Shown: positions 415 to 20,000 of the stretch, piece by piece
Layout of the letters: each line of letters opens with the position of its first letter
Numbering within the stretch: position 1 is the first letter of the stretch
Assembly (NCBI GenBank): GCA_003614675.1
Contig: ML002228.1
Location: 49,260-69,259 of the forward strand
Direction: 5' to 3'
Source of the DNA: Dimargaris cristalligena
Lineage: Eukaryota
Length of the DNA stretch: 20,000 nt
Position numbers and translations under genes: made by a program
Notes under the pieces: model-generated
The model's database searches: none
What the model was told of the DNA's origin: nothing
What the model saw: only the letters and a program-made list of their open reading frames with translations

Positions 415-2234
415 CTAGATTATGTCAGTGGACGTGGGGTGTGTCCATTTCAGGCCCATGTACCGGGATGTAGGGGCTTCGTAAGTGGCCAACTGCGCCA
501 TGGCCTCGTCCACGGTGCCACATGCTACCAGAATATTCCGGTTTCCGGCAGCCAGGAAGCCTTCCTCCACGGCACGGTCGATCCACAGTAGAAGGGGGTC
601 GAAATAACCCCGGATGTTAAGTAGGATAATCGGTTTGGAGTGGATATTCAGCTGCGACCTATTGGCGAAGACGGCGCGTGCATTACAGGCGCGATTATCC
701 CATTCAATAAATATAGGAACGGGCGGCCACCATTAGCTAATATTAGTAATGAATAAAGTACCCCTTGGTAGCATAGACCGGGGAGTCAATAAATAGGTGT
801 GTCGACTTTTCAAACAAATGGTAAATATATTGGGCACATAACTTACCACGTCGTAATCTCCAAGAGTTCTTCCATGGTGCCGTAGCCACCGGGTAGTACA
901 ATAAATGCGCTAGACTAGAATTTGGTTTATAGCCCGCACGCACACATGTCGTGGGTTCGGTCAATGTATCCAACATGCATAAACAATTGCAAATCTATCA
1001 TCAGAACCCCATCTTGTGCGAACTATACAGTAAATCTAAAGTGGAGCAGTAGCGAAAACATGGACTATATTTTCTAACCCGGCTGGGGAATGACCTGCCT
1101 TTTCGTTCATCATGCTCTTGCGCGTATGCATATCCGGCACTTCTATATTGGAACCGATTGCCTCACCGCTCACTTCAACTGTTTATCGTCCCCATAAACC
1201 AAGGTACAGAACATAACCCACCCAGTTCTTCAGGAATATTAGTACTTCCAGTAATGTGGTAGGGATTTATGTAGGACTGCTAAGACATAATAGGCGCATG
1301 CAGCCCGCCCACCCAACGCCGTCGAAAATTAAAGGTGGGGTAGGCTCTCTTACCTGGTGCAAGCGCTTTGGGGGTGATGCCGATGACGTGTCCACCGCTC
1401 TAGAGAATTAGAAGGAGTGACGAATAGTGTAGTTCGATGGAAATGTAGATTAGTCTTGGCATTTCGATGCTTCAGGAAATGTAACCGAGGCGTTTAATAG
1501 TGCCAGGTAACCTAAACACAGCCCCCCCCTCCGATAAGGACCGGAGATCAAGCCGGCCCAAAGGTCGAACAATCAGGTGTTAACTATACTTACCTTCGAT
1601 ACCGACTGGGCAACGCAGCCCATTAGGCCTTTAGTACCTCCGCCTGATTGAGAGTATACGTGTGACAAAGGCGTCCACCGTAAGGAGAAATAGGGCCAAG
1701 GTTAGGGGATAAATGAATTAGCCCTCTATGCAGGGGTAATCGGAAAAATTATCTATATCGCCCAGTAGTATGGTATGGCCTGTGTAAAGGGGGGGTTTAG
1801 TATCGACCAGATTAGTGCCCAAGATGCATAGGACGGGGAACACTTACCGTAGACTAGTCCGTAGCCGTGGCTGACAATGCTTTGTCCGAGTTCTAATAGA
1901 TTCATTTGGGACGAGGGGTACACATTGATGTTAAGGCGGTCAGACCAGTTGATTAGGCCATGTCCAGGTGTATAGTCGTTGGTAGGCCTGATATACGGTA
2001 TAGTTTGGGACAACTCGAGGACATTCCCCCTCCCGGCACTAGGCTTAGTTAAGTTGGCAGCCCAGTAGTGCAATCATGGTATTTATGTATTGTTATATAC
2101 TGCTCCCTCCCGTCACACTGCTCTCCCTGTGAAAGGAAATTGGACTTACTCTCTGCCATTTCCGCGTATGCAGGGTGCTTCCCCTGAGCCGATGCACAGA
2201 ACACGCAAATATACCGTTGCTCCGTGGCCGTCAT
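415..2234 (-). CDS. LOG1: LOG (LONELY GUY) family nucleotide/cytokinin riboside 5'-monophosphate phosphoribohydrolase, 205 aa, 7 exons
   Basis: Exons 2234-2150, 1892-1848, 1643-1594, 1399-1354, 1178-1099, 914-847 and 658-415 splice in frame (618 nt). Translation has ICVFCAS, LVYGGGTKGLMG, DMHTRK, the LOG signature PGGYGTMEE and WSQLNIHSKPIILLN. Confidence 0.93.
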
Positions 2235-4768
2235 AGTGTATACCGAATGTATGTATATCTATCTATATATATAAAACGACCCGGTTGGTCGGTTGTTGTA
2301 GACAACGTTTAAGGTGTTGCTAAAAGGGTGCAGGAGACGTCAGGGGTTGGTCAATTATGGATAGATACGGGAGTTGACCATGGGTAAGTCAGTGCTGCAG
2401 TTGGTTTCGGTGGTAAGCTCGGGTGTGTGTCGGCTGCAGAGAAGAAAAGTGCAGGTAGCAGCAGCAGTAATTGCTTTAGGTACCGAGAAGATTGGCTCAT
2501 TCCAAGGACGGCATGCGCCTCAAGAGGAAGAGATTCCGGGCAGGCCCGGGGTCATGCATGCCCCTTACCCCGCGACGTCCTTGCTAATCGTATACCGCCT
2601 CTCATTCCCTCATTCCCCCGAGGTATAACCTAGACTTTACCTACCTTAAAAGCGTAGCCGAGTATTGTGTGGTAGTGGATATAGGTAACAAAACAATGTG
2701 GTTCGTCTTACTAAAAGGGCAACCCGATGTTGGAAATCCTGAGATATTTAAATGGCGTTGAGAGTGCCACCAGTTTAGTTACATAGCAGTATGGGCCAAT
2801 GAGCGCTGATATTGCGCACTCATTTTTAAAAGCATTGGGTGTGTGCTCTTTATTGTGTGGGGCATATTGAGTCCCAAAAATAGCGTAAGGCCTTCCTCCT
2901 TCTCTCCCTTTCTTCCATCTTTCATGGCCTCCTTATTATACACTGCCTCCAACTTCTTCACTGAGCAAACCACCGTGGCACAGCAAGTTGCTCTAACTCG
3001 TGAGATTCGCCACTCTCCAATGATACCAAACTTTATCGTAGGGCTGAGCTTATTAGGTGGACGTGGGATTGGCCAACCAAACGCAGGCGGCTACATAATG
3101 ATAGGTGTTGATGCCCCTAATAAATAGAAGTGTAAACGGCGGCGTAGTAAATAAAACAACAGACACTGGAAATGATTCTTCCAGGTATTTCTTTATCAAA
3201 TACTTTCCAGTTCTGCAGGCATGGTGCAAATTCGGATCACTAAACCGATTAGGAGCAGCCCGCTGGGAGAAGAGGGGGGTGCTCTTGCTGCACAGACCCG
3301 ACGCTCTCGGGTCCATGCAAGTAAATCTTTCTTCTTATTACGAGAAACGCCTTGTCAGGAAGGAGCTCTTAGGCCGGTGGTAGCCCCCCCTCCTTTACCA
3401 CTTCCCGAGCAATTTCCTAGACAGCGAAGAGGAGATGAAAGATGCGGGGTATAATTTGCCAGCCTTGTTTACCCCTTCCCTTCGAGGCTTGTACTACAAC
3501 TATACCACCTACCCCACACAGGGGCTTACTTTAACGTAACTCAATCGCCTCTCGCCTTTGTAATTTTTTCCTTTCTATTTCCAAGACCCCACATACTGCC
3601 CATTAAATAGCGCCCTTCGCATTTGTGTGTTGTTTTGGCCAGACCCCTGTAAATGGATGAACTATGTAGTCGGCGTAGTCAAACAGTTCGCTCCCGATCA
3701 TATGGGTAAGCCGTAAGACCTAAACAAATATGCGTCGGATTTTGGGTTTCATGCGACCCGCCTTTTTTTATTTTGCATCAGATCGGCTTTGATTTAGCCA
3801 CTAGAATATGTCGGTAAATAGGCCGGCCGCTCATGTGGTAGCTAAAAACACTCTTAATTAGGTCTTTATGTGACTCCCACCTTGCTTAGATTTTAGTATA
3901 TTGAATGTAACCATATCTTATATACCCTGCAGCCATCCGCCAGTTTCCGGCTTAGATCATATTCCCATGACTTTAGCCTAAAATACCTTTGGTGCATTCG
4001 GCAGCTTTACACAGGCGGACTTGGGGCAAATGAAATGCAATAATCGGGTTACCCAAGCAGGGTTAAGAACCTCCGCAGGTACAGTCAAAATGTAAGTAGT
4101 GTGGGAAGCGCCGGATTCCGCCCAAAAGTGGTCTTGGCCCACTTTATGCACCCGCCCTAAGGATAAATTCCCCACATGATGTCAACGAGGCCCCCCAAAT
4201 TGGCCTAAAGAAACTTTAAAGAAATACCACTGAAAAATGGTGACAATGTTATTGAGACGGTGGGGCCTTGGGGTCTGATCAGCTGCAATTCCTCTCCGTG
4301 ACACCAGGGAGTCCGCCCTCTACACTCATCGGTGAATACAAGTATAACCAAACTACCATTTCAGGCTTGCCTTGTTCTGGCCCGACTCCCCAGAACCCAA
4401 CAGCTTTCTAGACAGCTGTCAGCTGGTTGGGTAGACGAAACCGATTAGATTGAATCCACCCGCCGGCTAGTTTAGCGCACCCTTAGGTAGTAGTAAAATG
4501 GAGTCAACGATAAAATCACCTACTGCCTTTATACCCCTCCTGTGCATTTTATATTACTGACCTTGGGACTCGTTGAAGTACCATTTACCCGGTGATGTAA
4601 AGCATTATATCCAAACCGTCACGCTCACAACCGTTGACCCAATTAATATGCCACAGCCACTCATTTAAAAAAACACATTTTATTTAGTACATCATCGAAA
4701 AATAGAAAGCGGAGAAATCTTATTCGGTACTTATAATCGGCACTATAGCAGCCCCGCCATCATGGGGG

Positions 4769-5987
4769 TTACTGAATTGGCACATACAAATTGTCGATAA
4801 AGGGAGTGACAGGCTCTGTATCAAACAACATTAATGCGAGGGACTCTTCTTTGGTCATCGCATAATGTACATAGGACAATCCGGTGGGTATCTTATTGGG
4901 GATTAGACCGCATTTGAACCCCATCTGCAAGTTAATACAGGCGGTGCTAACCTCCACCGCCTGTTTCCCTTCCACTTTGGAGGCCAGAAACTCGGCAATT
5001 TGGGGTCGGTCTAGATTCAGGGCCCAATAGTACAGGGCGGCCAGGTTCATTTTAAGTTTCCAGTTTTCCAACAGGCGGCTTTCTATGGCATGGGGGTCCC
5101 GCACCACGAGGAAACGGACAATATCGAGTTGGTTGTGAACAATAGCCACCCGGGCGAGATCGTGCGCTACGCGAACGGAAGTGTCCATCGTCAAGAGGGG
5201 TTGGATGCGTTTGTGCAGTTTATCAAAAGTCATTTTACTGATCCGATCGGTAATGAGATGAACGAGGGGGGTGCACAAGGTCGTGAATACGGCGGGTTGG
5301 CTAGCCTTTAAATCAGCCACAGTCAAGGTGTTGTAACGAGCCATCGTTGGCTGGAGTTTAGCCCAAGCCACGGGGCCGTTCTGGAGGAGGAGTTGGCGGG
5401 TCGTGTAAGCCGTAAAGATCCGCTGGGTGGCCGAGTCGTCGAGATTTCCGTCGTTATCAACGTGTCTCCTCAGCTAGGGTTCAAGGACACGCGATTTAGG
5501 TCATTAAATCAATGAAATAAAGTAGTGTAAATGGGCAGTTTCGGACTAATATAATGGATTGAGGGATATATACCTGAACCATCCGGTTTATCTGCCGATT
5601 GTCTATCAGTAAAAAATAGATGAATCTCCGGGCGAGTGAAGTGATTCCCTCCTCTAGATATAGATAGCTACTTACATCATAGGGGTTATATTTTTGCGCT
5701 ATTTCTTTCATGCCTGGGATCCGCAAAACTCGAATGAACTCATCCGGGTGAAGCTTGCCCAGAATCGAGAACATTATTTCTAAAGGTAGTTGGCCACGCG
5801 GAATAATGTTTTGGGTAGTCTTATTTACTTTGTTCGCTTGGGGCATTGGTTTCTTTATAGTACCAGGACTAGGTTCCGAATTAAGGTTTTGATGGTTGGG
5901 AACGGGGACGGCCGAGGAAGCTGTGAAGAGCTGGACCAGGGCTAGAAGTCCGAGTCCCAGAGTGAGGTTCTGAATTGGGCGAACCAT
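4769..5987 (-). CDS. Secreted protein with F-box-like motif and degenerate ankyrin-like repeats, about 372 aa, 2 exons
   Basis: Exon 1 5987-5574, GT-AG intron 5573-5474 (phase 0), exon 2 5473-4769 joins two ORFs of the track in frame. Signal peptide (LTLGLGLLALVQLFTASSA|VP), LPLEIMFSILGKLHPDEFIRV (F-box-like), LARVAIVHNQLDIVRFLV and LYYWALNLDRPQIAEFLA (ankyrin-like). Confidence 0.78.
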
Positions 5988-6169
5988 GTTGTATTCTATA
6001 GACGAAGAAAAAAAACCGGGGCTAGTAAACTTATCGAAACTTAACCCTTTGGTAAAGTATCGGGCAGAGCGTAGGGTGGTGAAGCGGGTTATCTAATAAA
6101 GTATTAGGTATAATGTACGTGTAGAGTATATTGTGATGGTCATAAAATGAGTAGGCGGGTCCACCCCTC

Positions 6170-6177: not shown

Positions 6178-8813
6178 CACTTCCGAATCAACCAGAATGG
6201 TGTCAGTAGTAGTGGAAACAGCCGTTGTCTGCTATAGTGGGTGGTATATTGCCAATGCCCACTCTAGACCCTGACGAGTTAAATGGCAGGACGGCAAGCC
6301 TTCTTACCATCCGAAAAAGGCCTGGGAGCACCACCAAGATGGCCCTTTCACTGTAGCAGCCGTTAGCGCACCCATTTAGGAGGACCTATTCAATTCTTTA
6401 GTCCACTTGGTCGTACAGCCATTTGCCATTTCCATTGCTGGGGTACAGTCACGGTATCCCCCCAAGGCGTATAGGCAGCCCCAAATTATACGTCTGCGGC
6501 GGCGGTGGCCGCCACTGGCCCTACGGTTAGGTTGAAACGCTTCTAAAAGAGTGGAGTACAAGCCGACGTTGCCACTGTATGGGGTATAAAGTGACTGAAC
6601 TGGTACGACGAAATCAGAGGGAGCTTATGGTCATAGTATTAAGTGGGCTCACCATTGTTCCTTTTTCAAATTATTTCGAAAAGAAAACCACGACACTCCC
6701 GATATCCGCCCTACCCTCCCCCTCCCACACACACATTTTATCTGTCACCGCCAATAGTCTTTCATAATTGGCCAGTCTGACTTCAACTCCACAGTTCTTA
6801 TTGTAGGATATAATTTGTAATTTTTTTTGAGGCGTTTTATAAAAGGTACACGGATATGTAGACAACGGGGCTATTTCGATACGACTAGCAGTGACCTATT
6901 TATGAAGTACGCCCCGTTTTATTATCACGATAATACTCAACAAATAGATTAGGCCATTTAGATAAGCGCTAACGGCCACGAGTTTGGGGAGTGTTCAACA
7001 AAGCTAGGCTCAAAATCCCCCGCATCGTCGGCAAGTTTTGCGGATGGAGCGGCGTCAGCTGGCTTTGCAGTTCCGATTTCAGTGGTACAGCCAAGCATGA
7101 GTCGGATCAGCTCGCGCAGCAGTCGGCTCTTGACGGACTCATACATTTTCTATTCTATCGCCTAATTCAGCAGCCAGTTCGTGCCACAAATTAGTACTAC
7201 CAAGGGGGGGAGGGAGCCTTTTCCCTATGAAGAGGTTCAGCGAGTCAGTCACTCCCCTCACTCTTTGCTCACTTTCCCTCAGCATGCTCTGGTTCGGTCT
7301 CAACAACGACATTTCATCGCCTTTTTTTATATATATTATTAATCATTGTTAGGTGTCTAAATTGATATGCTGCCAATCGTATACATATGAGTAAGGTCAT
7401 GAGGGGTCGCACAACTCTATATCAAGTGGCTACCAAGAGCCACTGCGACCCAGCGCAGCCTGTTTAGCAGCGCTGACCCTCCGTGTAACGGGGCACCGGT
7501 TGGACTACCGCATTAATTCGGGGGGATCGTTTTAAAGTGAACGCCATTTAAACCAACGGCATCTCGATAAGTGAGTTCTGATCATCCAAGCGCCACTTGT
7601 TGCCGCCTGGTACATGGTATTCTATAGTCCCCATGGGCCGACCCTAGAGCATAATTTCAACCGTGCTAGTTTCTCAGTCCCCCGTACTAGAAAAATAGGG
7701 CTGGGTATCGGCGGGCTCTTGCTTAGGTATCTCAGTGTCATTCTTGAACCATAGACATGCACCTGTGTGTGTGGGCGGGGGGGGGCAAGCTCCAGATTAG
7801 TATAAGTCCTGTCATACTAGACTCACAGATTGTTTCAGGTCGACCATTCTTTATAGGGATTTTATATAAACCGCCTTAATGCTACACTTGCGATGTGTGA
7901 CTTAACGGTTGGCCCTATTTGATGGCTACCGCCGAAAGGTTATTATTAGAATTGCTCTTAAATGCCAGTGGTCACCTAAATTGTCTGAACCATTTTTATG
8001 GCACAATCCGCAACCAATAAAGTGGGCCCTTAAGGTGGCACATATTTTCCACCATTTCAGTCGATGCGGTTTTTAAAGGCCTTTGATATTCTAGTCAGAT
8101 CATTGGTCCAGTAAATGTGGCTTCTGAAAAATATATTATACAATTGCCAACTCGACCCAAGTGGTGCGCCCCTAGTATTGACAGTCTAGTCGGTTACAAC
8201 GAGCAGCAATGGTGAATCACTCGTGTTAGTCATTTGAGCATGCCCCGCACTTTGTCAAAGTCAATTCATATTTTTAGTAAATGCTAATATTGTTAAAATG
8301 TGATTGCCATATCAATTTCCATTTACACTATATCTACTTAACACTGTTATAATTACATATTTTCTTTCATTAAGTGAAGCTATCGAATTTTTATATTAGT
8401 ATTGGAATCTGAACTTCAACTTCGTCCAAAAATATTGGAGGGTGTGGTAATAGCCGCCCAAAAAAATGACAGGCCTGTAGATGGTCACATGATATGAAGG
8501 CCAAGCGAAACCCACCACTAAAATACTGACAGCAGTAAATTAGAGTCGAGCAACAAATCCGGTTGCCTTAAGACCTGGTGGTAAAGTAAACTAAGTTTAG
8601 CATTTCAAAATGCTATGAGTGGCGGGAAACTCCTTTCGTACATCACTAACAACTGCTCAATGTTACCTTGCTATCGCACATTCCTATTGAAACCATCCCT
8701 TTTCTTCTAAACCATTACTTGACCCGGCTATTGGAACCTTTTGTGCCCATTACCAAACCCCGCCGACTGCATTTCCCTTTGCACCTACCATTCCGTGTTT
8801 TTTTTTACCAGCC

Positions 8814-10007
8814 ATGGCTAAGCAGGACGCCCATTTCTCAACGGGCCGCGTGGCGGCGTCGTTTACATCCACATCGCTTACGCCGGTCACGGTGACGAAG
8901 GCAGCGGAACGCGATGCGGAAGAAGTCATGTTCGAGAATGTCAAAGGAACCGGCCTGGTGAAAATCCAAACGAACCTGGGCGATATTGACGTGGAACTGC
9001 AGTGTCAGATTGTAAGTTGGAACCTCTTTCCCAAGCAGACTACTACACGTTTGACCATTCCATAGGTGTTATAGTGTTGCCGTCTTTTCTTTCCGAAAAT
9101 TTAACGCCGGCTTGGTTCGTTCTACCATGCTATTGAGACTCGTCTTTCCGGTCTAAATTTTAAACAATGTACTAACCTTTAAGATTTTTTCTGCTCTATT
9201 CCTCACATTCCACTGTTCTAGGCCCCCCGAACCTGTTACAATTTCATTATGCTGGCCAAAAGCGGTTACTACCGGAAGGTTCCTTTCCACCGATCCATTA
9301 AACATTTCATGATCCAGGGGGGCGACCCCACCGGTACCGGCCGAGGCGGCGACTCATACTGGAAGCGGGAATTTCCAGACGAGATCCGCGGTAAACGCCT
9401 CTCCCACGACCGACGGGGTATTCTAAGCATGGCCAACCACGGCCGGGACACCAACGGCTCCCAATTTTTCTTCACGTTCCGACCGTGTAAACATCTCGAT
9501 GGCAAACACACCATCTTCGGCCATATCGTGGGCGGTCAGGCCACCTTAGACACCATGGAACTAGTCCCCGCTGACCCCACCACCGACCGGCCCAGTCGGG
9601 ACATTCATATCATTGACTGTAAAGTGTTGGAAAATCCGTACGAGATATACCAGCAGCGGATGGCCCGGAAGGAACGTCATCTAAATACTGCGGCGGCTAA
9701 GAAAGGCCAGGACAGCGGGAGCCAATCCCTCTACCATAAAGCAACAGCAGCAGGGGCAGCAGTCCCGGCTTCCGTTGATAATACAACAACCTGGTTCGGT
9801 ACGTCCGTGGGAAACCCCCGTTCGACATCGTCGGCCGGGTCTGCGGGGGGTGCTCGGGTAGGAAAGTACTTGGCGGCTAAACGAAAGGCCCTAGCAGATG
9901 CCAAAGAGGCGGGTGAAACTCTGACGGGGTCGGGGATTACACCGACACCAGGAGCAAAGAAGTCGAAACCCTCCGGCTACCAATTTGGCGATTTTAGTAG
10001 CTGGTAA
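8814..10007 (+). CDS. PPIL2: Cyclophilin-type peptidyl-prolyl isomerase, PPIL2/Cyp60/Cyp8-like, C-terminal half only (about 327 aa), 2 exons
   Basis: Exon 1 8814-9011, intron 9012-9221 (GTAAGT..ACTAAC..TAG), exon 2 9222-10007. Cyclophilin motifs APRTCYNF, FHRSIKHFMIQGGDPTGTGRGG, SMANHG, NGSQFF, HLDGKHTIFG. PPIL2-type linker AHFSTGRVAASFTSTS and C-terminal FGDFSSW. Confidence 0.9.
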
Positions 10008-12676: not shown

Positions 12677-13123
12677 ATGCTGCCAAACCTCTTGCTCGCA
12701 ACGCTGGCCGTTGTGGTCCTTTCGGCGTGTTCCACCTTTGCCTCGCTCAGCGGGAACCAAGTAATTACCCCCCATAACTGGGTGATTATGCATGATCAAT
12801 TAGCTAATAATCCCCCAGCCTGCGAAATGCCCTACGCCGAGCTTCGCCTGGAACGTATCACGGCCGTCCAGGGCCTGGTCAAGGGCAGTATGTGCGGTAA
12901 ATGCATCAAAGTCGCCAATGCCGCTGATCCCCAGAAATCCATGTACGTTCTGGTAGTTGATATGGGAGGCCGCGGCTTGGATGTCAGTACCGTGGCTTAT
13001 AAACAAATCTTTGGGCAAGACACGGATCCGGCCAGTGCCGTTTGGACCGAGGCCCCCGATAGCGCATGCGCCGGAGTCTGGAATAAGAGGCGCTCGAGCA
13101 CTATCAATACGAGACGTCGCTAG
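12677..13123 (+). CDS. Secreted RlpA-like double-psi beta-barrel protein (expansin domain 1 / loosenin / cerato-platanin-like), 148 aa, intronless
   Basis: Signal peptide MLPNLLLATLAVVVLSACSTFA, then PAC, ITAV, MCGKCIKV, YVLVVD, GLDVS and a terminal W..C pattern typical of DPBB expansin-like proteins. GC-rich third positions. Confidence 0.82.
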   Translation: MLPNLLLATLAVVVLSACSTFASLSGNQVITPHNWVIMHDQLANNPPACEMPYAELRLERITAVQGLVKGSMCGKCIKVANAADPQKSMYVLVVDMGGRGLDVSTVAYKQIFGQDTDPASAVWTEAPDSACAGVWNKRRSSTINTRRR

Positions 13124-14700: not shown

Positions 14701-15327
14701 TGTGAGTAAAAGAGGGGGGATACTTGAATCAAGGGACGGGAAAATGTACAAAACAAAGAAGGAATAGTATACCAATAGACGATATATCTTAATGGAAGGA
14801 ATGTGGGAATAGGCGATTAACTGATTCAAGGCAAAAGGGGGAGGATTGGGTGACGGAAGGCGCAGGCAAAGCGTAGGTTACGCCGGCCAGAGCATTTAGT
14901 CCAGGAGATTCGTGTTAGTTTAAACCGCCTCTGAATTTCGCATACCTTCCTAATGAACCCTCCTCCCTCACTCAGCTTTTCACGATGGGTGCGGCTCCCA
15001 TTCTTAGGCTCCGCGATACTGTCGTTTACTACCCACGTGATCATATAATCGTTAAACCCCACTGTATATGGGAGCCCAAATGTGGGGGCTCAAAACGATA
15101 GGAGTAGTGCAGCAGTCTGTATTCCTCTCCTTCGAGCCCATCAGGCTCCTACACTCTCAACCTTGTCAAAGCGAAGCAGATTCGGCTGAACTTACATTTC
15201 GAAAGGTCAGCGGTAGAGCTCGTCTGAACGCCTAGAAGCTAGCCGCATTTACCCCGTTACCCCCAACCTAGCCTTCCATTTACCTATAGTATCCTTTTAG
15301 TGGCTAATTACCCAATTCCACCGAGCG
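14701..15327. promoter_or_regulatory. Divergent (probable bidirectional) promoter region of TIM9 and the ASNSD1-like gene
   Basis: 627 bp between head-to-head start codons. No specific element identified. Confidence 0.45.
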
Positions 15328-17737
15328 ATGTGTGGAATTCTCTTTGGTGCTAGTCCCGCTTCGTTTCAGGCCCCCGAGAAGGCTCAGTGGGAAGGGCTTA
15401 AGACTGCTCTGAATCGACGGGGGCCCGATGCTCAAAAAGAGGTATGTTTGACCGAGCCAGCGCAGTTGTCAGACCCGGCCGAACCCCAACTGTCTCTATA
15501 CGGCTATGCCACCGTGCTTCACCTCCGGGGGGAGCAGACTGTAGCCCAGCCCTTACAAGACCCGAACAATAACTACATCTTCTTTTGGAATGGGGAAGTG
15601 TTTGACAGTTTACAAGTAAGTGTTGGCATCATACTTACAACTGCTATAATTAGACCCCGCCCTCAGTTTATGAAATGGCTCGGGAGCGTCACGAAGTACT
15701 CCTTCACTTATTCACTTTCAAAGGCCTTTCCAAAAACCATTCAATTGAATCCTAGATAGACCCTCATTGTAATGACACCACCGTGGTTTTCGATGCCCTG
15801 GTAGCGGCGTCGAATAACTCTGACCCCACAGTCGCACGCCGTTTCTTTCTCGACGCTATCCAGCGAGTTGGTGGGCCGTTTGCCTTTGTATTTTATAATG
15901 TAAGTGTCCAGATTTGGTGATAGTATTAAAGGAAATTACGTCTGTCCGTGGCCTAGGACGTAGTGAAATATCTGCCCTCTTGCACCCTTAAATACTGACA
16001 GCGTATAGATGGTCGCATCCGCCTTGTTGTATTATTTGATGTGTATTAGTGCCGAACTGGGGATGTATGGTTTTCCCGCGACTGTCTAGGAAGACGATCA
16101 TTATTATGGCGACTGCCTGATTCTGATCATCCCAGTTTTTGGTTGAGCTCCGTCATTTGTACTGAGGGCGAGCCAGCTCCTAGCGGTCAATGGCAAGAAG
16201 TATCCGCCCATGGCATTTATCGACTGGATACTCGCCAATGGTTGTCAAATCCGGAGAAATTTAGCGAATCCCTGACCTGCTATCGGTGGTCCTCTTTGCC
16301 AGCAACTCCAACTTCCCTATCGGGCATCTCGGGGATCGAAGCGGTACCCCAACTCCAGTTGCCCTACCAATCTGTCAATAAGGAGGAACCCCTGTCCACC
16401 CAGTTAGTGGGAGCCCCGGCCTCTCAATCCGCACCAGATTCAGGCTCATCCCAATCGAACAGCTGCCCCTCGCTCGATGAACTGGTTTATCCCCTGGATA
16501 TGCAGCAATACGCTCAGGCATTTATAGGCATACTACGGCAAGCCTTACGCGAGCGGGTCGAAACCATTCCTTCGACCCTATCCTTGCTGGGTCCGGACTC
16601 GACCCGAGTGGCGGTCCTATTTTCCGGGGGCGTCGACTGCCTGTGCCTCGCGGCCCTGCTCCACCAAATACTTCCTCCGGGAGAGCCCATCGACCTCATC
16701 AATGTGGCATTCGAAAACCCTCGCACAACTCAATTGCCCGCGTCTTCCCAGGGTCCGAAACACCGCGGGTCTTTCTACCATGGCCCACCCTACCAAATGA
16801 CCCTACCCTCGGGGGAGGTATACTTATTTGATGAGAAGGAGTACCATCGGTTATTTGATGTCCCCGATCGCCTCACGGGTCGGGCCAGCTTTAGGGCCCT
16901 CGCCGAATGGGCCCCCCAGCGTACCTGGCGATTCGTAGCCGTTAATGTCCCGTACAGTCAAGTCGAAGTGCAGCGGACCCGGATCACTCAGCTCATGCAA
17001 CCTGCCCATACCGTCATGGATTGGAGCATCGCTCTGGCCCTGTGGTTTGCGGCCACTGGTGAAGGCTATTTGGAACCTTGGCAGACCGAGCATGAGGTGC
17101 CGATATCCCCGACTATTCAACTCCAGGCATACCGCTCACCGGCACCGGTGCTGTTGCTCGGAATGGGTGCGGACGAGCAATTGGGTGGGTATTCTAAACA
17201 CCGCGACCGGTTTGAAGCCCAGGGCTGGGTTGGCCTGGTGGAGGAGGTAGGTTGATTCATTTTCCCATATTATATCAATACTTACAAATGTACACCATTA
17301 TTTTACTATGCACGCTCCTATTGTGCCGAAAGTTCTCGGTTGATTATCCCATTAACTGTATTTTACCCACCGAGTACTAATCGATGCTTGTTTTTTTCTC
17401 TCTATTATCGATTGGTCATTAGATGCAAGGCCAAATTGATCGAATCGCTATCCGCAATCTCGGACGCGATGATCGAATTATTAGTGACCATGGTAAGGAG
17501 TCCCGTTTTCCCTTCTTGTCCCACCGGGTCGTGGATTTCCTCTGCTCCGTCCCCGTGCACTACAAAGCCGACCTGCGCTTCCAGCGTGGGATCGGTGAAA
17601 AGATACTGCTGCGCTATGCTTTACGCCAACTCGGGTTGCCGCTGTCCGCATGTCAACAGTGGAAAAAGGCTATCCAGTTCGGCGCCCGAACCGCCAAGAT
17701 GACCTCGGGAAAAGATAAGGGCACTGATAAAATATAG
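15328..17737 (+). CDS. ASNSD1: Asparagine synthetase domain-containing protein (ASNSD1/YML096W-like), about 647 aa, 4 exons
   Basis: Exons 15328-15615, 15756-15899, 16050-17246 and 17423-17737, all phase 0 GT-AG. Motifs MCGI (Ntn Cys2), RRGPD, VLHLRG, WNGEVF, NDT, RDCLGRRSLL, AVLFSGGVDC, IDLINVAFENPR, VPDRLTG, GMGADEQLGGYSKH, RNLGRDDRIISDHGKESRFPFL, KKAIQFGARTAKM. Confidence 0.93.
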
Positions 17738-18845
17738 AATGTAATGGCTATTCACTACCTTGCTAAAAAATTATGTTGCTAAATATTATAATGGTTTGAA
17801 GGGGATAGATGGAGAAAGTCTCGCTGGAAACAAAATGGGCCATAGGAAACCACCAATGGCCTGTAAGCCCTTAACATATCCGATGGCAAGTTGGTCTTAT
17901 TCAGACGACTGCAAGATTTATTAAGCGATACCACCAGCTCTTTAATCGAATGGGTTACTTTTTGACTACTAGATAATCATCATGCTATCCTTTGGCGGAA
18001 AGTTGGGGCGGGGTGACGGGTGACCTGTGATAATACAATTTGCATCTATGTTTCTACATGTCGGGATGTCAACATTCGAGAACGGCACAGGGTGTCAAGG
18101 TTCAGTAAACATATGAAGTGTCGCGAGACAGTCACCAATTGGTTTCAAATGCCCGGCTATCAATTATTTGGATGTTGGCTACTGATTTTCAATGGTATGG
18201 TGATTCTGGTAAATATTTCCACACTTTTAGAAAGGCTATGCCCTGACTGTTATGCACACAATTGGTTGAATTGTAATGCGTTATGCCAATTTTATGACGC
18301 CTATTTTAAATATGGAGTGCAATTCGGTATATTTAAACAATTGTTTCGAGACCCTGGTTCGATAAGCCACCTTAAAAACGCGTTGTGGTGTTCTATGTGT
18401 AGTGTGGTGAGCACATCAGTGATCAGCCTTCACTGTTTAGCTATCAGTTCATCTGGTGATAGTAATGCCAAAGTGACGATTATCGACTATTTTAATGATT
18501 CCAGCTGATATGACGAGTTTTATGAGAATGTTTCCACGCCTTTCGGGGAGTCAACGCCCGACTAGTGATTCTGATTTTATGATAATGACCATGCGCTATG
18601 ATGGATTTATGACGACAATTGGAAATGTAAAATACAATTTTTAGGGTATTTAAATGCCTGCTTTATAACCTCAGTTCAGGGAGTCCTCTTCCTCCCAGGA
18701 AAGCGATATTATTTTGCTCATACCTTCCCATTGCTTTCACGACCTTAGAATTCCATTGCAATAATCATTCGTAAATAAATATTTTATTCATTAAAATCGG
18801 CTTGTTTCTACTAGTATATGGGAGTAGTTCAACAAGGCTGTATAA

Positions 18846-18916
18846 CGAAAAATCCATTTGATGAGGCAAGTACTGCTGGTTGAAAATAAACATCCCACCG
18901 ATTTTCCCATACACAT
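18846..18916 (+). repeat. Left arm of long inverted repeat
   Basis: 18853-18916 is the exact reverse complement of 19930-19993 (64 bp). 69/71 matches when extended to 18846 / 20000. Confidence 0.95.
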
Positions 18917-19720
18917 ATCGGTTAAACCCCTATACAACCAAGCTGAACTTCACCCATATTTATTGTTTCTGTAGCCTGATTGTTATTATGCCACCCCCCT
19001 CTTTTGATCCTTCCGGGGCCAACGTTCCTTTCTTGGTCGGTCAGGAAACGCCCCCATCGACGTCCTCTACAGGAGCCCGTGACTCCTACTTGTATCCCCC
19101 AACCTGGCACCGCGAAACCCGAAAATCATGGCAACATAAAAATGTAGCTATGCGAATTAGCCCGTCGATATATAACCGGGAAGACTAATGATTACGGTTT
19201 TGAAATAGCGAATAATCTATTCGAAAACGCTACAAGATGATTCAACAAATAACTGATAATAATAGAAGGGAATGCTGAATGTTATATCGAATGTGAAAAA
19301 AGAGGCAGAAATAGTTAAAGAAAGGGTGTCATTCTGTGGTCGGATTCCCGCGCTTTAATGAGGGAACTAGGTAATGTCGACACCTGGTTCTCAAAGATCA
19401 GTCGATTTTAATCGCACCGACTACTAAGCATAGTAACGAGCATGACACCAAGCATAAACCAAAAGAAAAACATATGAACAAGTGGACTACCATACTCATT
19501 TTATTAAATAAATAAATGACGCCGTTCGACTAGACAGGGTGTTCTGGGATTGTTTGCAAAATCTATTATAAACCCACAATATTAACTGTAATATGGCAGT
19601 GGCGAGGTGAATTATACAGATAATTATTTTATTCTCTATACTAGTATCGATAAAAAGCGAAAAATTACAAACAATAAAAAAATAATCAAATTATAAGATG
19701 TATTAATGCGGAGTAAAAAT

Positions 19721-19770
19721 ATGTAAGTGATTAGAAGTGAAATGAAGTGAATTGAAGTGATTTGATTGAA
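19721..19770. repeat. Degenerate 10-bp tandem repeat (nnnGAAGTGA-like, about 5 units)
   Basis: Units atgtaagtga, ttagaagtga, aatgaagtga, attgaagtga, tttgattgaa. Confidence 0.7.
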
Positions 19771-19929
19771 CCTACTTTCATAAATAACTACCTCTAAGAA
19801 AATGAGATTTGGTGGAGTAAATATACTGGAACAACGAAGTCGGATTCAATAATATTTATGGGCCTATGGAATAACCAGCAAGTAATAATAGCTCTCCAGC
19901 GCTATGGCCTGGATTCTTTTTCCATCGGA

Positions 19930-20000
19930 ATGTGTATGGGAAAATCGGTGGGATGTTTATTTTCAACCAGCAGTACTTGCCTCATCAAATGGAATATTCG
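19930..20000 (-). repeat. Right arm of long inverted repeat (truncated by window edge)
   Basis: Reverse complement of 18846-18916 with 2 mismatches, at 19994 and 19996. Confidence 0.95.

Follow-up and report, generated by a model that had tools for sequence, protein, structure and literature searches.

A two-exon gene of the mycoparasitic fungus Dimargaris cristalligena encodes a 338-aa protein in which an N-terminus with signal-peptide anatomy is followed by a polar linker, a stretch that matches the F-box at sub-threshold level, and a conserved, little-known helical domain at the C-terminus. The reading that we consider best, with a probability of a little over one in three (about 0.37), is that this protein is a candidate host-delivered adaptor for the SCF ubiquitin ligase of the host fungus. 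Dimargaritales parasitize Mucoromycota and some Ascomycota by means of an appressorium and a biotrophic haustorium, and the parasitic fungus that the initial annotation had proposed as the source is indeed a haustorial mycoparasite of this order (PMC9866270, PMC10386755).

The gene and its flanking signals

The gene is located on the minus strand of the analyzed window, the term used here for the whole stretch of 20,000 nt. Its parts and flanking signals are as follows:

5676..5987, minus strand: exon 1, aa 1-104 (signal-peptide-like N-terminus, polar linker and F-box-like segment), start context ACAACATGG
5474..5675, minus strand: intron of 202 nt, GTAAGT...TAG, phase 0, GC 0.39
4769..5473, minus strand: exon 2, aa 105-338 and the stop codon TAA
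6170..6177, minus strand: candidate TATA box TATAAATA, 183 nt 5' of the start codon, read from the sequence
4679..4684, minus strand: candidate poly(A) signal AATAAA, 85 nt past the stop codon, read from the sequence

The ATG start codon corresponds to positions 5987-5985 and the TAA stop codon to positions 4771-4769. The splice donor GTAAGT starts at 5675, the acceptor TAG is at 5476-5474, and reading through the intron leads to a stop after 59 codons. The translations of the two exons correspond to residues 1-104 and 105-338 of the public protein P0003 (NCBI H4R33_001466 of D. cristalligena), which is 100% identical to the product over its full length and is named 'F-box domain-containing protein' in UniRef. 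The splice that was implicit in the initial annotation thus holds, with donor GTAAGT, acceptor TAG, phase 0 and a product that reproduces the public protein, and the coordinates given there, the stretch aa 67-97 and both strings described as ankyrin-like match the sequence exactly. Inspection of the sequence ahead of exon 1 revealed no in-frame ATG upstream of the start codon; one upstream ATG is present at 6143. The neighboring genes are housekeeping genes (LOG-like, cyclophilin, asparagine-synthase domain), with no effector cluster.

A small family sharing the C-terminal domain

An exhaustive phmmer search over 1.84 billion representatives returned three relatives besides the protein itself (P0004, P0006 and P0007), whose matches are all confined to the C-terminal domain. 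The conserved features are as follows:

4778..5344, minus strand: conserved all-alpha domain, aa 148-336, delimited by phmmer coverage and the alignment of the four members
4910..4939, minus strand: cysteine pair C283 and C292, invariant in all four members of the alignment (A1)

Besides the two cysteines, the residues that are invariant in alignment A1 include W242, K243, N247, W254, A255, N257, L258, F329, N332 and L333. In a BLASTP comparison, similarity to P0004 extends over aa 147-336 (32% identity, E 3e-28). P0006 and P0007 keep the signal peptide and the C-terminal domain and lack the approximately 75 residues that make up the linker and the F-box-like segment. The named relatives are both from other Dimargaritales, P0004 being from Tieghemiomyces (IWQ60_004299) and at least one signal-bearing relative from Dispira. 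A tblastn search of the window gave no match below E 0.4 other than the gene itself, and hence no paralogue. As judged from these searches, the family is small and all its named members belong to the Dimargaritales; the expanded lineage-specific family envisaged previously is not seen, with three relatives among 1.84 billion representatives and no paralogue within the window. We also considered that P0004 might keep the last F-box helix at its N-terminus, encoded by a missed 5' exon; BLASTP gave no significant similarity before aa 147, and the idea is retained as a lead only.

The family also bears on the gene model. The model is ab initio, and exons 1 and 2 might not belong to one transcript, in which case the conserved domain would be translated from M148 and the frame of exon 1 would be separate or non-functional. 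The significant homology with P0004 sets in at M148, which is also the first Met in exon 2, and the sole match to the branch-point pattern CTRAY lies 136 nt from the acceptor. We nevertheless regard such an artefact as very improbable: the donor is a canonical GTAAGT, the intron is in phase 0 and the frame is open from the acceptor onward, between 70 and 90 residues precede the conserved part in all three relatives, and the core of the signal peptide encoded by exon 1 recurs in P0006 and P0007. Because these signal-peptide-bearing relatives share that core, exon 1 is linked to the family encoded by exon 2.

A signal-peptide-like N-terminus

5910..5987, minus strand: signal-peptide-like N-terminus, aa 1-26 (R3, apolar core L8-F21, T-A-S-S-A before V27)

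The signal peptide was judged by rules (hydrophobicity and charge counts). The elements sought were a basic n-region, a hydrophobic h-region some 7-15 residues long, and small residues in positions -3 and -1. All three elements are present. One basic residue, R3, lies ahead of the apolar run 8-27, and the small residues S24 and A26 precede V27. The best 15-residue Kyte-Doolittle window, 1.98 at residue 8, is the highest in the whole protein, and residues 8-24 form its best hydrophobic window. The net charge is +1 ahead of the apolar run and -1 over the 15 residues after it, and this balance therefore favors translocation of the C-terminal part. Two of the three relatives, P0006 and P0007, have K2 and an apolar run of 16-18 residues with a core nearly identical to that of P0003, whereas P0004 as annotated has no signal peptide. 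The classical signal peptide proposed initially (ASSA|VP) is thus present in its anatomy by this rule-based check and is common to two of the three relatives; because of the near-identical core in P0006 and P0007, we read it as a functional coding element that belongs to one gene with exon 2. The predicted cleavage after A26 would release a secreted protein. The signal-peptide-like N-terminus and the F-box-like segment are both encoded by exon 1, and the odd pairing of the two is therefore independent of the intron call.

F-box proteins are, as a rule, cytosolic or nuclear. This would agree with a protein that is not secreted at all and is an ordinary adaptor of the fungus's own SCF, with the hydrophobic helix kept as a membrane anchor, or with translation starting at the internal Met at position 47 to yield a cytosolic F-box protein. 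If residues 8-27 are all counted, the apolar run has a length of 20, close to the shortest that spans a membrane, and cleavage of the signal is only predicted. However, the strong core is limited to some 14 residues (L8-F21), with small polar residues behind it, as is typical of cleaved signals, and even with the helix kept as an anchor the charge balance would place the F-box on the lumenal side. Moreover, A at -3 and G at +4 flank the first ATG, versus C at -3 for M47, and the N-terminal core is kept in relatives that lack the F-box. We therefore consider a non-secreted adaptor unlikely.

A divergent F-box-like segment

5688..5792, minus strand: F-box-like segment, aa 66-100 (LPxE start and three predicted helices, 69-77, 81-88 and 93-100)

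The F-box pattern consists of an LPxE start followed by regularly spaced hydrophobic residues. Here, L67-P68-L69-E70 is followed by the hydrophobic residues I71, I75, L76, L79, F84, V87, L88 and I90; the Trp that is usual in the third helix of an F-box is absent from the translated segment. In the Pfam scan, PF12937 (F-box-like) is the sole family reported for the protein, and no match to PF00646 was reported. The PF12937 match scores 13.9 bits with exon 1 and 12.5 bits with the whole protein, below the cut-off of 24.3 bits. It covers aa 66-88, corresponding to profile positions 3-25 of 47, with an E of 0.047 over 24,736 models and 10 bits below the gathering score; by our own arithmetic, this E corresponds to a probability of about 2e-6 for one family named beforehand.

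The predicted structures contain the three helices in both AlphaFold2 runs (69-77 or 79, 81-88 and 93-100) at low confidence, with a pLDDT of 44-56 or lower. An ESM-Atlas structure search with aa 60-135 returned F-box families in nine of ten rows, with TM 0.46-0.56 over stretches of only 51-62 residues and a query structure of low confidence from a language model (mean pLDDT 0.43), and the part search with the same residues gave an F-box cluster as the top feature match (0.89). Foldseek found no F-box resemblance in the PDB, and when the PDB sequences were searched with each exon, with aa 60-104 and with the family profile, nothing meaningful came up (the best matches being a designed protein at E 0.8 and a glycosyltransferase at E 0.65). 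The F-box-like segment annotated initially is thus present, with an LPxE start and three helices predicted at low confidence, and falls short of the Pfam cut-off. In our view, aa 66-100 is probably a weak but real F-box.

Alignment, Pfam and BLASTP detected no F-box in the three relatives. Because of this, and because homology with P0004 begins only at aa 147, the segment could be a lineage-specific insertion without a role in SCF. This leads to a different view of the protein, in which the secreted product works extracellularly, or at the haustorial interface or wall. The helical domain would then carry the function, and the F-box-like stretch, a lineage-specific lookalike insertion or a relic, would never come into contact with Skp1. 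In agreement with this view are the two relatives that have a signal peptide and no F-box-like stretch, the F-box score below the Pfam cut-off and the invariant cysteines, which are as expected of a disulfide in a protein of the secretory pathway; a C283/C292 disulfide is possible from their conservation. On the other hand, even when a complete fungal proteome is considered, the per-family probability remains low, F-box families dominate the Atlas structure rows, and the start of the segment fits LPxE, with the hydrophobic spacing kept through two helices. An exclusively extracellular role is, in our judgment, somewhat unlikely.

The linker and a possible Kex2 site

5796..5909, minus strand: polar Pro/Asn/Lys-rich linker, aa 27-64, ending in IIPR (by composition)

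The polar linker ending in IIPR that had been noted initially is borne out by its composition, with seven P, six N and four K among 38 residues. It has no secondary structure and a pLDDT of about 30 in both AlphaFold models. To judge from the motif, the linker could be a pro-domain that ends in an extended Kex2-type site (IIPR); a four-residue motif of this type is at the level expected by chance. IIPR at aa 61-64 fits the K2PP rule, in which P1 is Arg, P2 is one of the accepted residues (here Pro) and P4 is aliphatic (PMC8528282). The K2PP fungal effectors have a signal peptide and a disordered N-terminal stretch, followed by a Kex2-type site (PMC8528282), an arrangement that the protein described here would share. 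However, those effectors were described from plant pathogens, and here the IIPR site is not conserved in the relatives because these lack the linker.

The fold of the C-terminal domain

4970..5173, minus strand: ankyrin-like stretch, aa 205-272, of which only aa 212-238 measurably match an ankyrin repeat

A single-sequence AlphaFold2 model of the protein had a mean pLDDT of 38.5, too low for use. The model built from the four sequences reached a pLDDT of 58 and a pTM of 0.60, with a pLDDT of 80-88 over aa 200-280. With the latter model, Foldseek found no significant neighbor in the PDB (best E 0.43, TM at most 0.23), and likewise none in BFVD (best E 0.062). The PDB is rich in ankyrin structures, and its DARPin and FEM1B rows appeared only at E about 3.

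Sequence comparisons give a similar picture. The Pfam ankyrin families (PF00023 / PF12796 clan) were found in none of the four members, P0003 being scanned at E up to 10 and P0004, P0006 and P0007 at E up to 1, while the true ankyrin protein P0005 scored 4e-142 in the same scan. A phmmer match to P0005 (E 2e-11) is summed from ten stretches of 1.7-8.3 bits on one query region. When the ten repeats of P0005 were collapsed to one profile, P0003 matched only at aa 212-238, with 14.2 bits, and the scores of the other three members were 0 or less. In a shuffle control, the score was 86.4 bits versus a maximum of 15.5 in 200 shuffles, which shows only that a short motif is non-random. We thus rejected the phmmer match as proof of ankyrin repeats: a single 27-aa motif, found in one of the four members, was counted ten times. 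Aligning A1 with P0005 by hhalign paired two units at E 0.011 and a probability of 3.9%, and no ankyrin protein turned up when the PDB sequences were searched with the family profile. The ten best family-bearing matches of the Atlas feature search all belong to the ankyrin family or clan (0.92-0.94), with the rows shown sharing only 119-136 of 256 features.

Membership of the ankyrin family, as claimed initially, could therefore not be demonstrated: with no Pfam match in four members and one 27-aa match, what is left is a weak resemblance. As modeled, the C-terminal domain does not appear to be a recognizable ankyrin or other known interaction fold.

A possible mechanism and its significance

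If the protein is a host-delivered SCF adaptor, the signal peptide (aa 1-26) would direct it to the parasite's ER, which would separate the F-box from the Skp1 in the parasite's cytosol. Cutting at IIPR would possibly remove the disordered linker (aa 27-64) and leave the F-box at a new N-terminus; the signal peptide, perhaps together with a Kex2-removed pro-domain, would in this way shield the parasite itself from the effector. Once secreted at the haustorium, the protein would pass into the host hypha, where its divergent F-box (aa 66-100) would dock on host Skp1. Because Skp1 is highly conserved among fungi, a parasite F-box would fit the host ligase without mimicry. The helical C-terminal domain (aa 148-336) would then bring a host protein for ubiquitination, or the protein would merely titrate Skp1. 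We know of no route of protein uptake into a fungal host. In favor of an SCF adaptor delivered to the host are the parasitic way of life of the fungus, the signal-peptide anatomy and its recurrence in two relatives, the Pfam match and predicted helices of the F-box-like segment, the giant-virus neighbors in BFVD and the precedents of SSGP-71 and RipG7. The F-box match that is sub-threshold and partial, the lack of any PDB match by sequence, the low model confidence, the relatives in which an F-box is undetectable, the C-terminal domain that resembles no known interaction fold and the housekeeping-gene surroundings all speak against it.

The F-box may have been gained in the Dimargaris lineage by insertion between the signal peptide and the binding domain of a secreted helical family that binds host proteins, thereby converting a binder into a degrader; the protein would then be the first fungal SCF-hijacking effector, and the first used by a fungus against a fungus. 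We regard this scenario as possible, and on balance doubtful.

To our knowledge, the effectors of early-diverging mycoparasites are essentially unknown. Viruses have F-box effectors that use the host SCF ligase. Such effectors have also been described for bacteria and an insect (PMC4617103). In the literature searched, we found no fungal example, no occurrence of the phrase 'secreted F-box', and none of 'Dimargaris cristalligena' together with 'F-box'. Judged by title, none of the papers retrieved with mycoparasit, F-box, signal peptide and ankyrin is about Dimargaritales, and neither 'F-box' nor 'ankyrin' occurs in a comparative paper on Kickxellomycotina (PMC9866270). If true, the host-delivered adaptor would provide a point of entry for studying how one fungus, living as a biotroph, manipulates another, and a clear case of a degrader that arose by domain accretion. 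Should this reading be refuted, the protein would be one more orphan secreted protein.

Comparison with known systems

The SSGP-71 effectors of the Hessian fly form a very large, expanded family with a classical signal peptide. As proposed for the protein described here, a secreted protein of a eukaryotic parasite has an N-terminal F-box (or F-box-like segment) followed by a further domain, and the repeat domain of SSGP-71 is thought to pick the host target. The SSGP-71 proteins of Mayetiola destructor have an N-terminal F-box, and members interact with host Skp proteins (PMC4617103). They differ in having leucine-rich repeats and in being used by an insect on a plant, whereas the Dimargaris protein has an all-alpha domain, three relatives and a sub-threshold F-box, and would be used by a fungus on a fungus.

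The architecture that the initial annotation had in mind is that of AnkB of Legionella pneumophila, in which an N-terminal F-box is followed by true ankyrin repeats, and which is delivered to the host cytosol and works with the host SCF ligase. The order of an N-terminal F-box (or F-box-like segment) and a helical domain is the same here. However, AnkB is bacterial, exported by a type IV system and has true ankyrin repeats, in contrast to the putative ER signal peptide of the Dimargaris protein and the absence of a Pfam ankyrin match in its family. The RipG/GALA effectors also have an N-terminal F-box with a domain behind it, which in their case consists of repeats. RipG7 of Ralstonia solanacearum interacts with SKP1-like proteins of Arabidopsis, and virulence depends on the F-box of RipG7 (PMC4617103). 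Unlike the Dimargaris protein, the RipG/GALA effectors come from bacteria, reach the host by type III injection and have LRRs as their repeats.

Viral proteins offer another comparison. Among the whole-protein feature matches in the Atlas, the top one is a cluster of Nucleocytoviricota with Ank_2 in 24% of its members, and giant-virus proteins named F-box or ankyrin make up 31 of the best 50 BFVD rows, all with E of at least 0.06. Such proteins of Pandoravirus and Pithovirus are the nearest named BFVD neighbors of the model, with none counted at E of 0.001 or less and with TM of at most 0.21 among the best 50 rows. In contrast to the Dimargaris protein with its signal-peptide-like N-terminus, the viral F-box/ankyrin proteins are synthesized within the host cell itself and hence have no signal peptide. 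In the ankyrin/PRANC proteins of poxviruses, the domain order is the opposite.

Finally, the ordinary F-box proteins with which fungi equip their own SCF share with the protein described here the LPxE start, three short helices, which are predicted here at low confidence, and a C-terminal domain that possibly binds substrate. They have no secretory signal, whereas the signal-peptide-like N-terminus of the Dimargaris protein is one that it has in common with relatives.

Gene Structure and Genomic Surroundings

The gene under study lies on the minus strand at window positions 4769-5987 and has two exons. The translations of exons 1 and 2 are identical to residues 1-104 and 105-338, respectively, of the public 338-residue protein P0003, which is listed in NCBI as 'hypothetical protein H4R33_001466 [Dimargaris cristalligena]' and in UniRef as 'F-box domain-containing protein'.

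Features of the gene
6177-6170, minus: TATA-like box TATAAATA, upstream of the start codon
5987 (ATG) to 5676, minus: exon 1, 104 codons
5675-5474, minus: predicted intron, 202 nt, donor GTAAGT, acceptor TAG, phase 0, GC 0.39
5473 to the stop TAA at 4771-4769, minus: exon 2, 234 codons
4684-4679, minus: AATAAA, downstream of the stop

The context of the start codon is strong (A at -3, G at +4), and the window sequence contains no in-frame ATG upstream of it. The predicted splice of 5675-5474 is canonical, and, without splicing, a stop would be reached after 59 codons of read-through. A single upstream ATG, at 6143 on the minus strand, is located downstream of the TATA-like box and ahead of the start codon, and opens a short reading frame if transcription begins upstream of it.

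The neighbours of the gene are ordinary and do not form an effector cluster.

Other genes in the window
415-732, minus: C-terminal fragment of a LOG/'possible lysine decarboxylase' protein (PF03641, E 2.7e-12)
8691-10007, plus: cyclophilin-type peptidyl-prolyl isomerase gene (PF00160, E 8e-44)
12677-13123, plus: small gene with a signal-peptide-like start, MLPNLLLATLAVVVLSACSTFA, and sub-threshold Cerato-platanin and Barwin matches
about 15301-17737, plus: multi-exon asparagine-synthase-domain gene; two different frames match the domain (E 2e-4 and 7e-10)

The frame at 12677-13123 matches Cerato-platanin with E 4.5e-4 (20.8 bits against the 24.4 required) and Barwin with E 5.7e-3; it lies 6.7 kb away from the gene at 4769-5987 and may encode a second secreted protein. 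The cyclophilin gene seems to be interrupted by an intron, and its product has a long C-terminal tail rich in Ala, Ser, Gly and Lys. Towards the right-hand end of the window, over 18000-20000, the G+C content drops from about 0.48-0.55 to 0.38-0.40.

P0003 Belongs to a Small Family

A phmmer search of all 1.84 billion representatives returned five proteins at the threshold of E ≤ 0.001: P0003 itself, P0004 of Tieghemiomyces parasiticus (E 9e-18), the large ankyrin protein P0005, P0006 (E 4e-6) and P0007 of Dispira parvispora (E 7.5e-6). Tieghemiomyces and Dispira both belong to the Dimargaritales. The family is narrowly distributed and small; the initial annotation had imagined an expanded lineage-specific family, which is wrong, given three relatives (P0004, P0006 and P0007) among all representatives and no paralogue within the window.

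Homology between P0003 and its relatives is confined to aa 147/148-336. Invariant positions of the family include W242, K243, N247, W254, A255, N257, L258, F329, N332 and L333, and the cysteine pair C283/C292 is also invariant in the alignment. No F-box is detectable in any of the three relatives, and the linker plus F-box-like segment (about 75 residues) so far appears unique to Dimargaris. The annotated N-terminus of P0004 has no signal peptide. MAFFT aligns its residues 1-33 with the final helix of the F-box-like segment in Dimargaris, and BLASTP over these residues found no significant similarity to P0003; the Tieghemiomyces gene may possibly have a missed 5' exon.

A Conserved Signal-Like N-Terminus and a Polar Linker

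As first annotated, P0003 begins like a signal peptide, with one basic residue (R3), a strongly hydrophobic core (L8-F21) and then T-A-S-S-A, after which V27 follows. Whether taken over 9, 15 or 19 residues, the most hydrophobic window of the whole protein falls here. Among the three relatives, P0006 and P0007 have K2 followed by an apolar run of 16-18 residues, with a core nearly the same as the one in P0003. Signal peptides are fast-diverging sequences, and a core common to the three proteins therefore argues that the segment is coding, functional and of the same gene family as exon 2.

This common core also bears on the possibility that exons 1 and 2 were wrongly joined in the model. Although significant homology begins only at M148, as a mis-join would have it, 70-90 residues precede that point in all relatives and the core binds exon 1 to the family, so that we regard this explanation as very improbable.

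The net charge of P0003 is +1 ahead of the apolar run and -1 over the next 15 residues. By the positive-inside rule, it is thus the C-terminal part that is predicted to be translocated, with the signal cleaved or left in place. This speaks against a protein that is not secreted at all, in which the helix would be an anchor, or translation would start from M47, and P0003 would be an ordinary endogenous SCF adaptor. The charge balance would place the F-box in the lumen regardless, the hydrophobic core is short, the context of the first ATG is better than that of M47, and the N-terminal core has been kept in relatives without an F-box. We consider this reading unlikely.

The polar linker that had been noted was also recovered: aa 27-64 contain 7 Pro, 6 Asn and 4 Lys among 38 residues, end in IIPR, and have no predicted secondary structure (pLDDT near 30 in AlphaFold2 models). 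In the excerpted text of PMC8528282, the P1 residue of a fungal Kex2 site must be Arg, Pro is accepted at P2 and P4 is preferably aliphatic, and 'K2PP' effectors carry a disordered pro-domain ahead of the Kex2 site; IIPR fits the rule described there. Putative cleavage at this site would leave the F-box-like segment as the mature N-terminus, but this is a lead only, because a motif of four residues is bound to arise by chance and the linker is missing from the relatives.

The F-Box-Like Segment Is Sub-Threshold and Probably Genuine

The single Pfam family reported for P0003 is F-box-like (PF12937), at aa 66-88, which scores 13.9 bits with exon 1 (E 0.047) and 12.5 bits with the whole protein (E 0.13; E-values over 24,736 models). 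The gathering score is 24.3 and the match spans only profile positions 3-25 of 47, so the segment fails formal F-box membership. Since the F-box family had been named beforehand, the per-family probability of the match applies, which by our own arithmetic is about 2e-6 and is low even over an entire fungal proteome.

An F-box typically starts with LPxE, shows a characteristic hydrophobic spacing and usually has a Trp in its third helix. Read from the translation, the segment starts with LPxE and preserves the spacing over two helices, and the typical Trp is absent from it. Both AlphaFold2 runs placed helices at 69-77(79), 81-88 and 93-100, with a pLDDT of just 44-56 in the better model. An ESM-Atlas search with aa 60-135 gave an F-box cluster as the top feature match (0.89, below the 0.9 line), and nine of the ten structure rows were F-box families (TM 0.46-0.56 over 51-62 residues); these matches are not independent of the sequence motif, because they rest on a low-confidence language-model structure and short stretches. 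A PDB sequence search with the region found no matching chain. Taken together, we consider that the region is quite probably a true, divergent F-box, as annotated, even though the Pfam threshold was missed.

The Pfam match probability and the F-box neighbours in the Atlas oppose a reading in which P0003 is secreted and acts outside cells or at the interface, the F-box-like stretch being an inserted segment that plays no part in an SCF ligase. In favour of this reading are the relatives and the invariant C283/C292 pair; we hold it to be doubtful.

Ankyrin Repeats Are Not Established in the C-Terminal Domain

The ankyrin repeats of the initial annotation could not be established. Pfam ankyrin models match none of the four family members. 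P0005 is a true ankyrin protein of 1,424 residues (Ank_2 E 4e-142) that matched P0003 with E 2e-11 in the exhaustive phmmer search, a score to which ten stretches contribute 1.7-8.3 bits each, all on query aa 207-259. When its ten 115-residue repeats were merged into one profile and the family members were rescored, P0003 matched at aa 212-238 alone, with 14.2 bits, and none of its relatives scored above 0. The E-value is therefore ruled out as proof of ankyrin repeats: one short motif was tallied ten times. The ten super-repeats of P0005 are near-identical, with an anchor motif spaced at exactly 115 residues, and no other ankyrin protein in the set of 1.84 billion representatives reached E 0.001 with the query.

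An hhalign comparison of the family alignment with P0005 aligned two helix-turn-helix units at aa 186-272 (E 0.011, probability 3.9%). In the Atlas whole-protein feature search, the ten best family-bearing matches all belonged to the ankyrin family or clan (0.92-0.94); ten of ten is, as the tool cautions, also obtained by a third of shuffled proteins, and the rows shown had just 119-136 of 256 features in common with P0003. The core of a four-sequence AlphaFold model was fairly confident (pLDDT 80-88 at aa 200-280, pTM 0.60); Foldseek against the PDB gave nothing better than E 0.43 and TM 0.23, and a search of PDB sequences with the family profile returned no ankyrin chain. Of the 50 top-ranking BFVD rows, 31 were proteins of giant viruses with F-box (11) or ankyrin (20) in their names, each with E ≥ 0.062 and TM ≤ 0.21. 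Our conclusion is that an all-alpha domain with one ankyrin-like motif and no recognised fold occupies aa 148-336; an ankyrin-repeat domain is not demonstrable.

Discussion

Thus, what had been observed in the sequence is largely real, and the labels given to it were too strong. In P0003, the signal peptide is directly upstream of the F-box-like segment; exon 1 holds both, so this combination is independent of the intron call. No partner for an F-box is known, either within the secretory pathway or extracellularly. Dimargaris is a member of the Dimargaritales (Kickxellomycotina), and its attribution to a parasitic fungus was right: according to excerpts of PMC9866270 and PMC10386755, Dimargaritales are mycoparasites of Mucoromycota and some Ascomycota that use a penetration cell and a biotrophic haustorium in their attack. 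The parasitised organism is itself a fungus, neither plant nor animal. For a haustorial biotroph, host delivery is the simplest way to supply the missing partner, and we tentatively favour P0003 as a host-delivered adaptor that docks on host Skp1, with a probability of roughly 0.37.

What the analysis shows directly are the gene model, the anatomy of the signal and its retention in relatives, the sub-threshold F-box and how narrowly the family is distributed; from cleavage on, the mechanism is inferred. The signal would withhold the F-box from the parasite's own Skp1. Inside the host hypha, the F-box would dock on host Skp1, and the conserved C-terminal domain might recruit a host protein for ubiquitination, or P0003 might titrate Skp1. 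Skp1 is highly conserved and both partners are fungi, so special mimicry would be unnecessary. Relatives with the signal peptide and the domain and without an F-box suggest a possible evolutionary route, in which a degrader module was added to a secreted binder, unless it was Dispira that lost the module. An effector role is consistent with the organism and can be put to the test.

Our literature search, the Kickxellomycotina paper included, found no published account of P0003. Legionella AnkB and the poxvirus ankyrin/PRANC proteins are among the closest to it in mechanism, as are the giant-virus F-box/ankyrin proteins, which are non-significant BFVD neighbours of its model, and Ralstonia RipG7 and the Hessian-fly SSGP-71 effectors, both described in the excerpt of PMC4617103. 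In contrast to all of these, P0003 has an F-box below the Pfam threshold and a second domain in no recognised repeat family, and it is fungal and, as proposed, aimed at a fungus.
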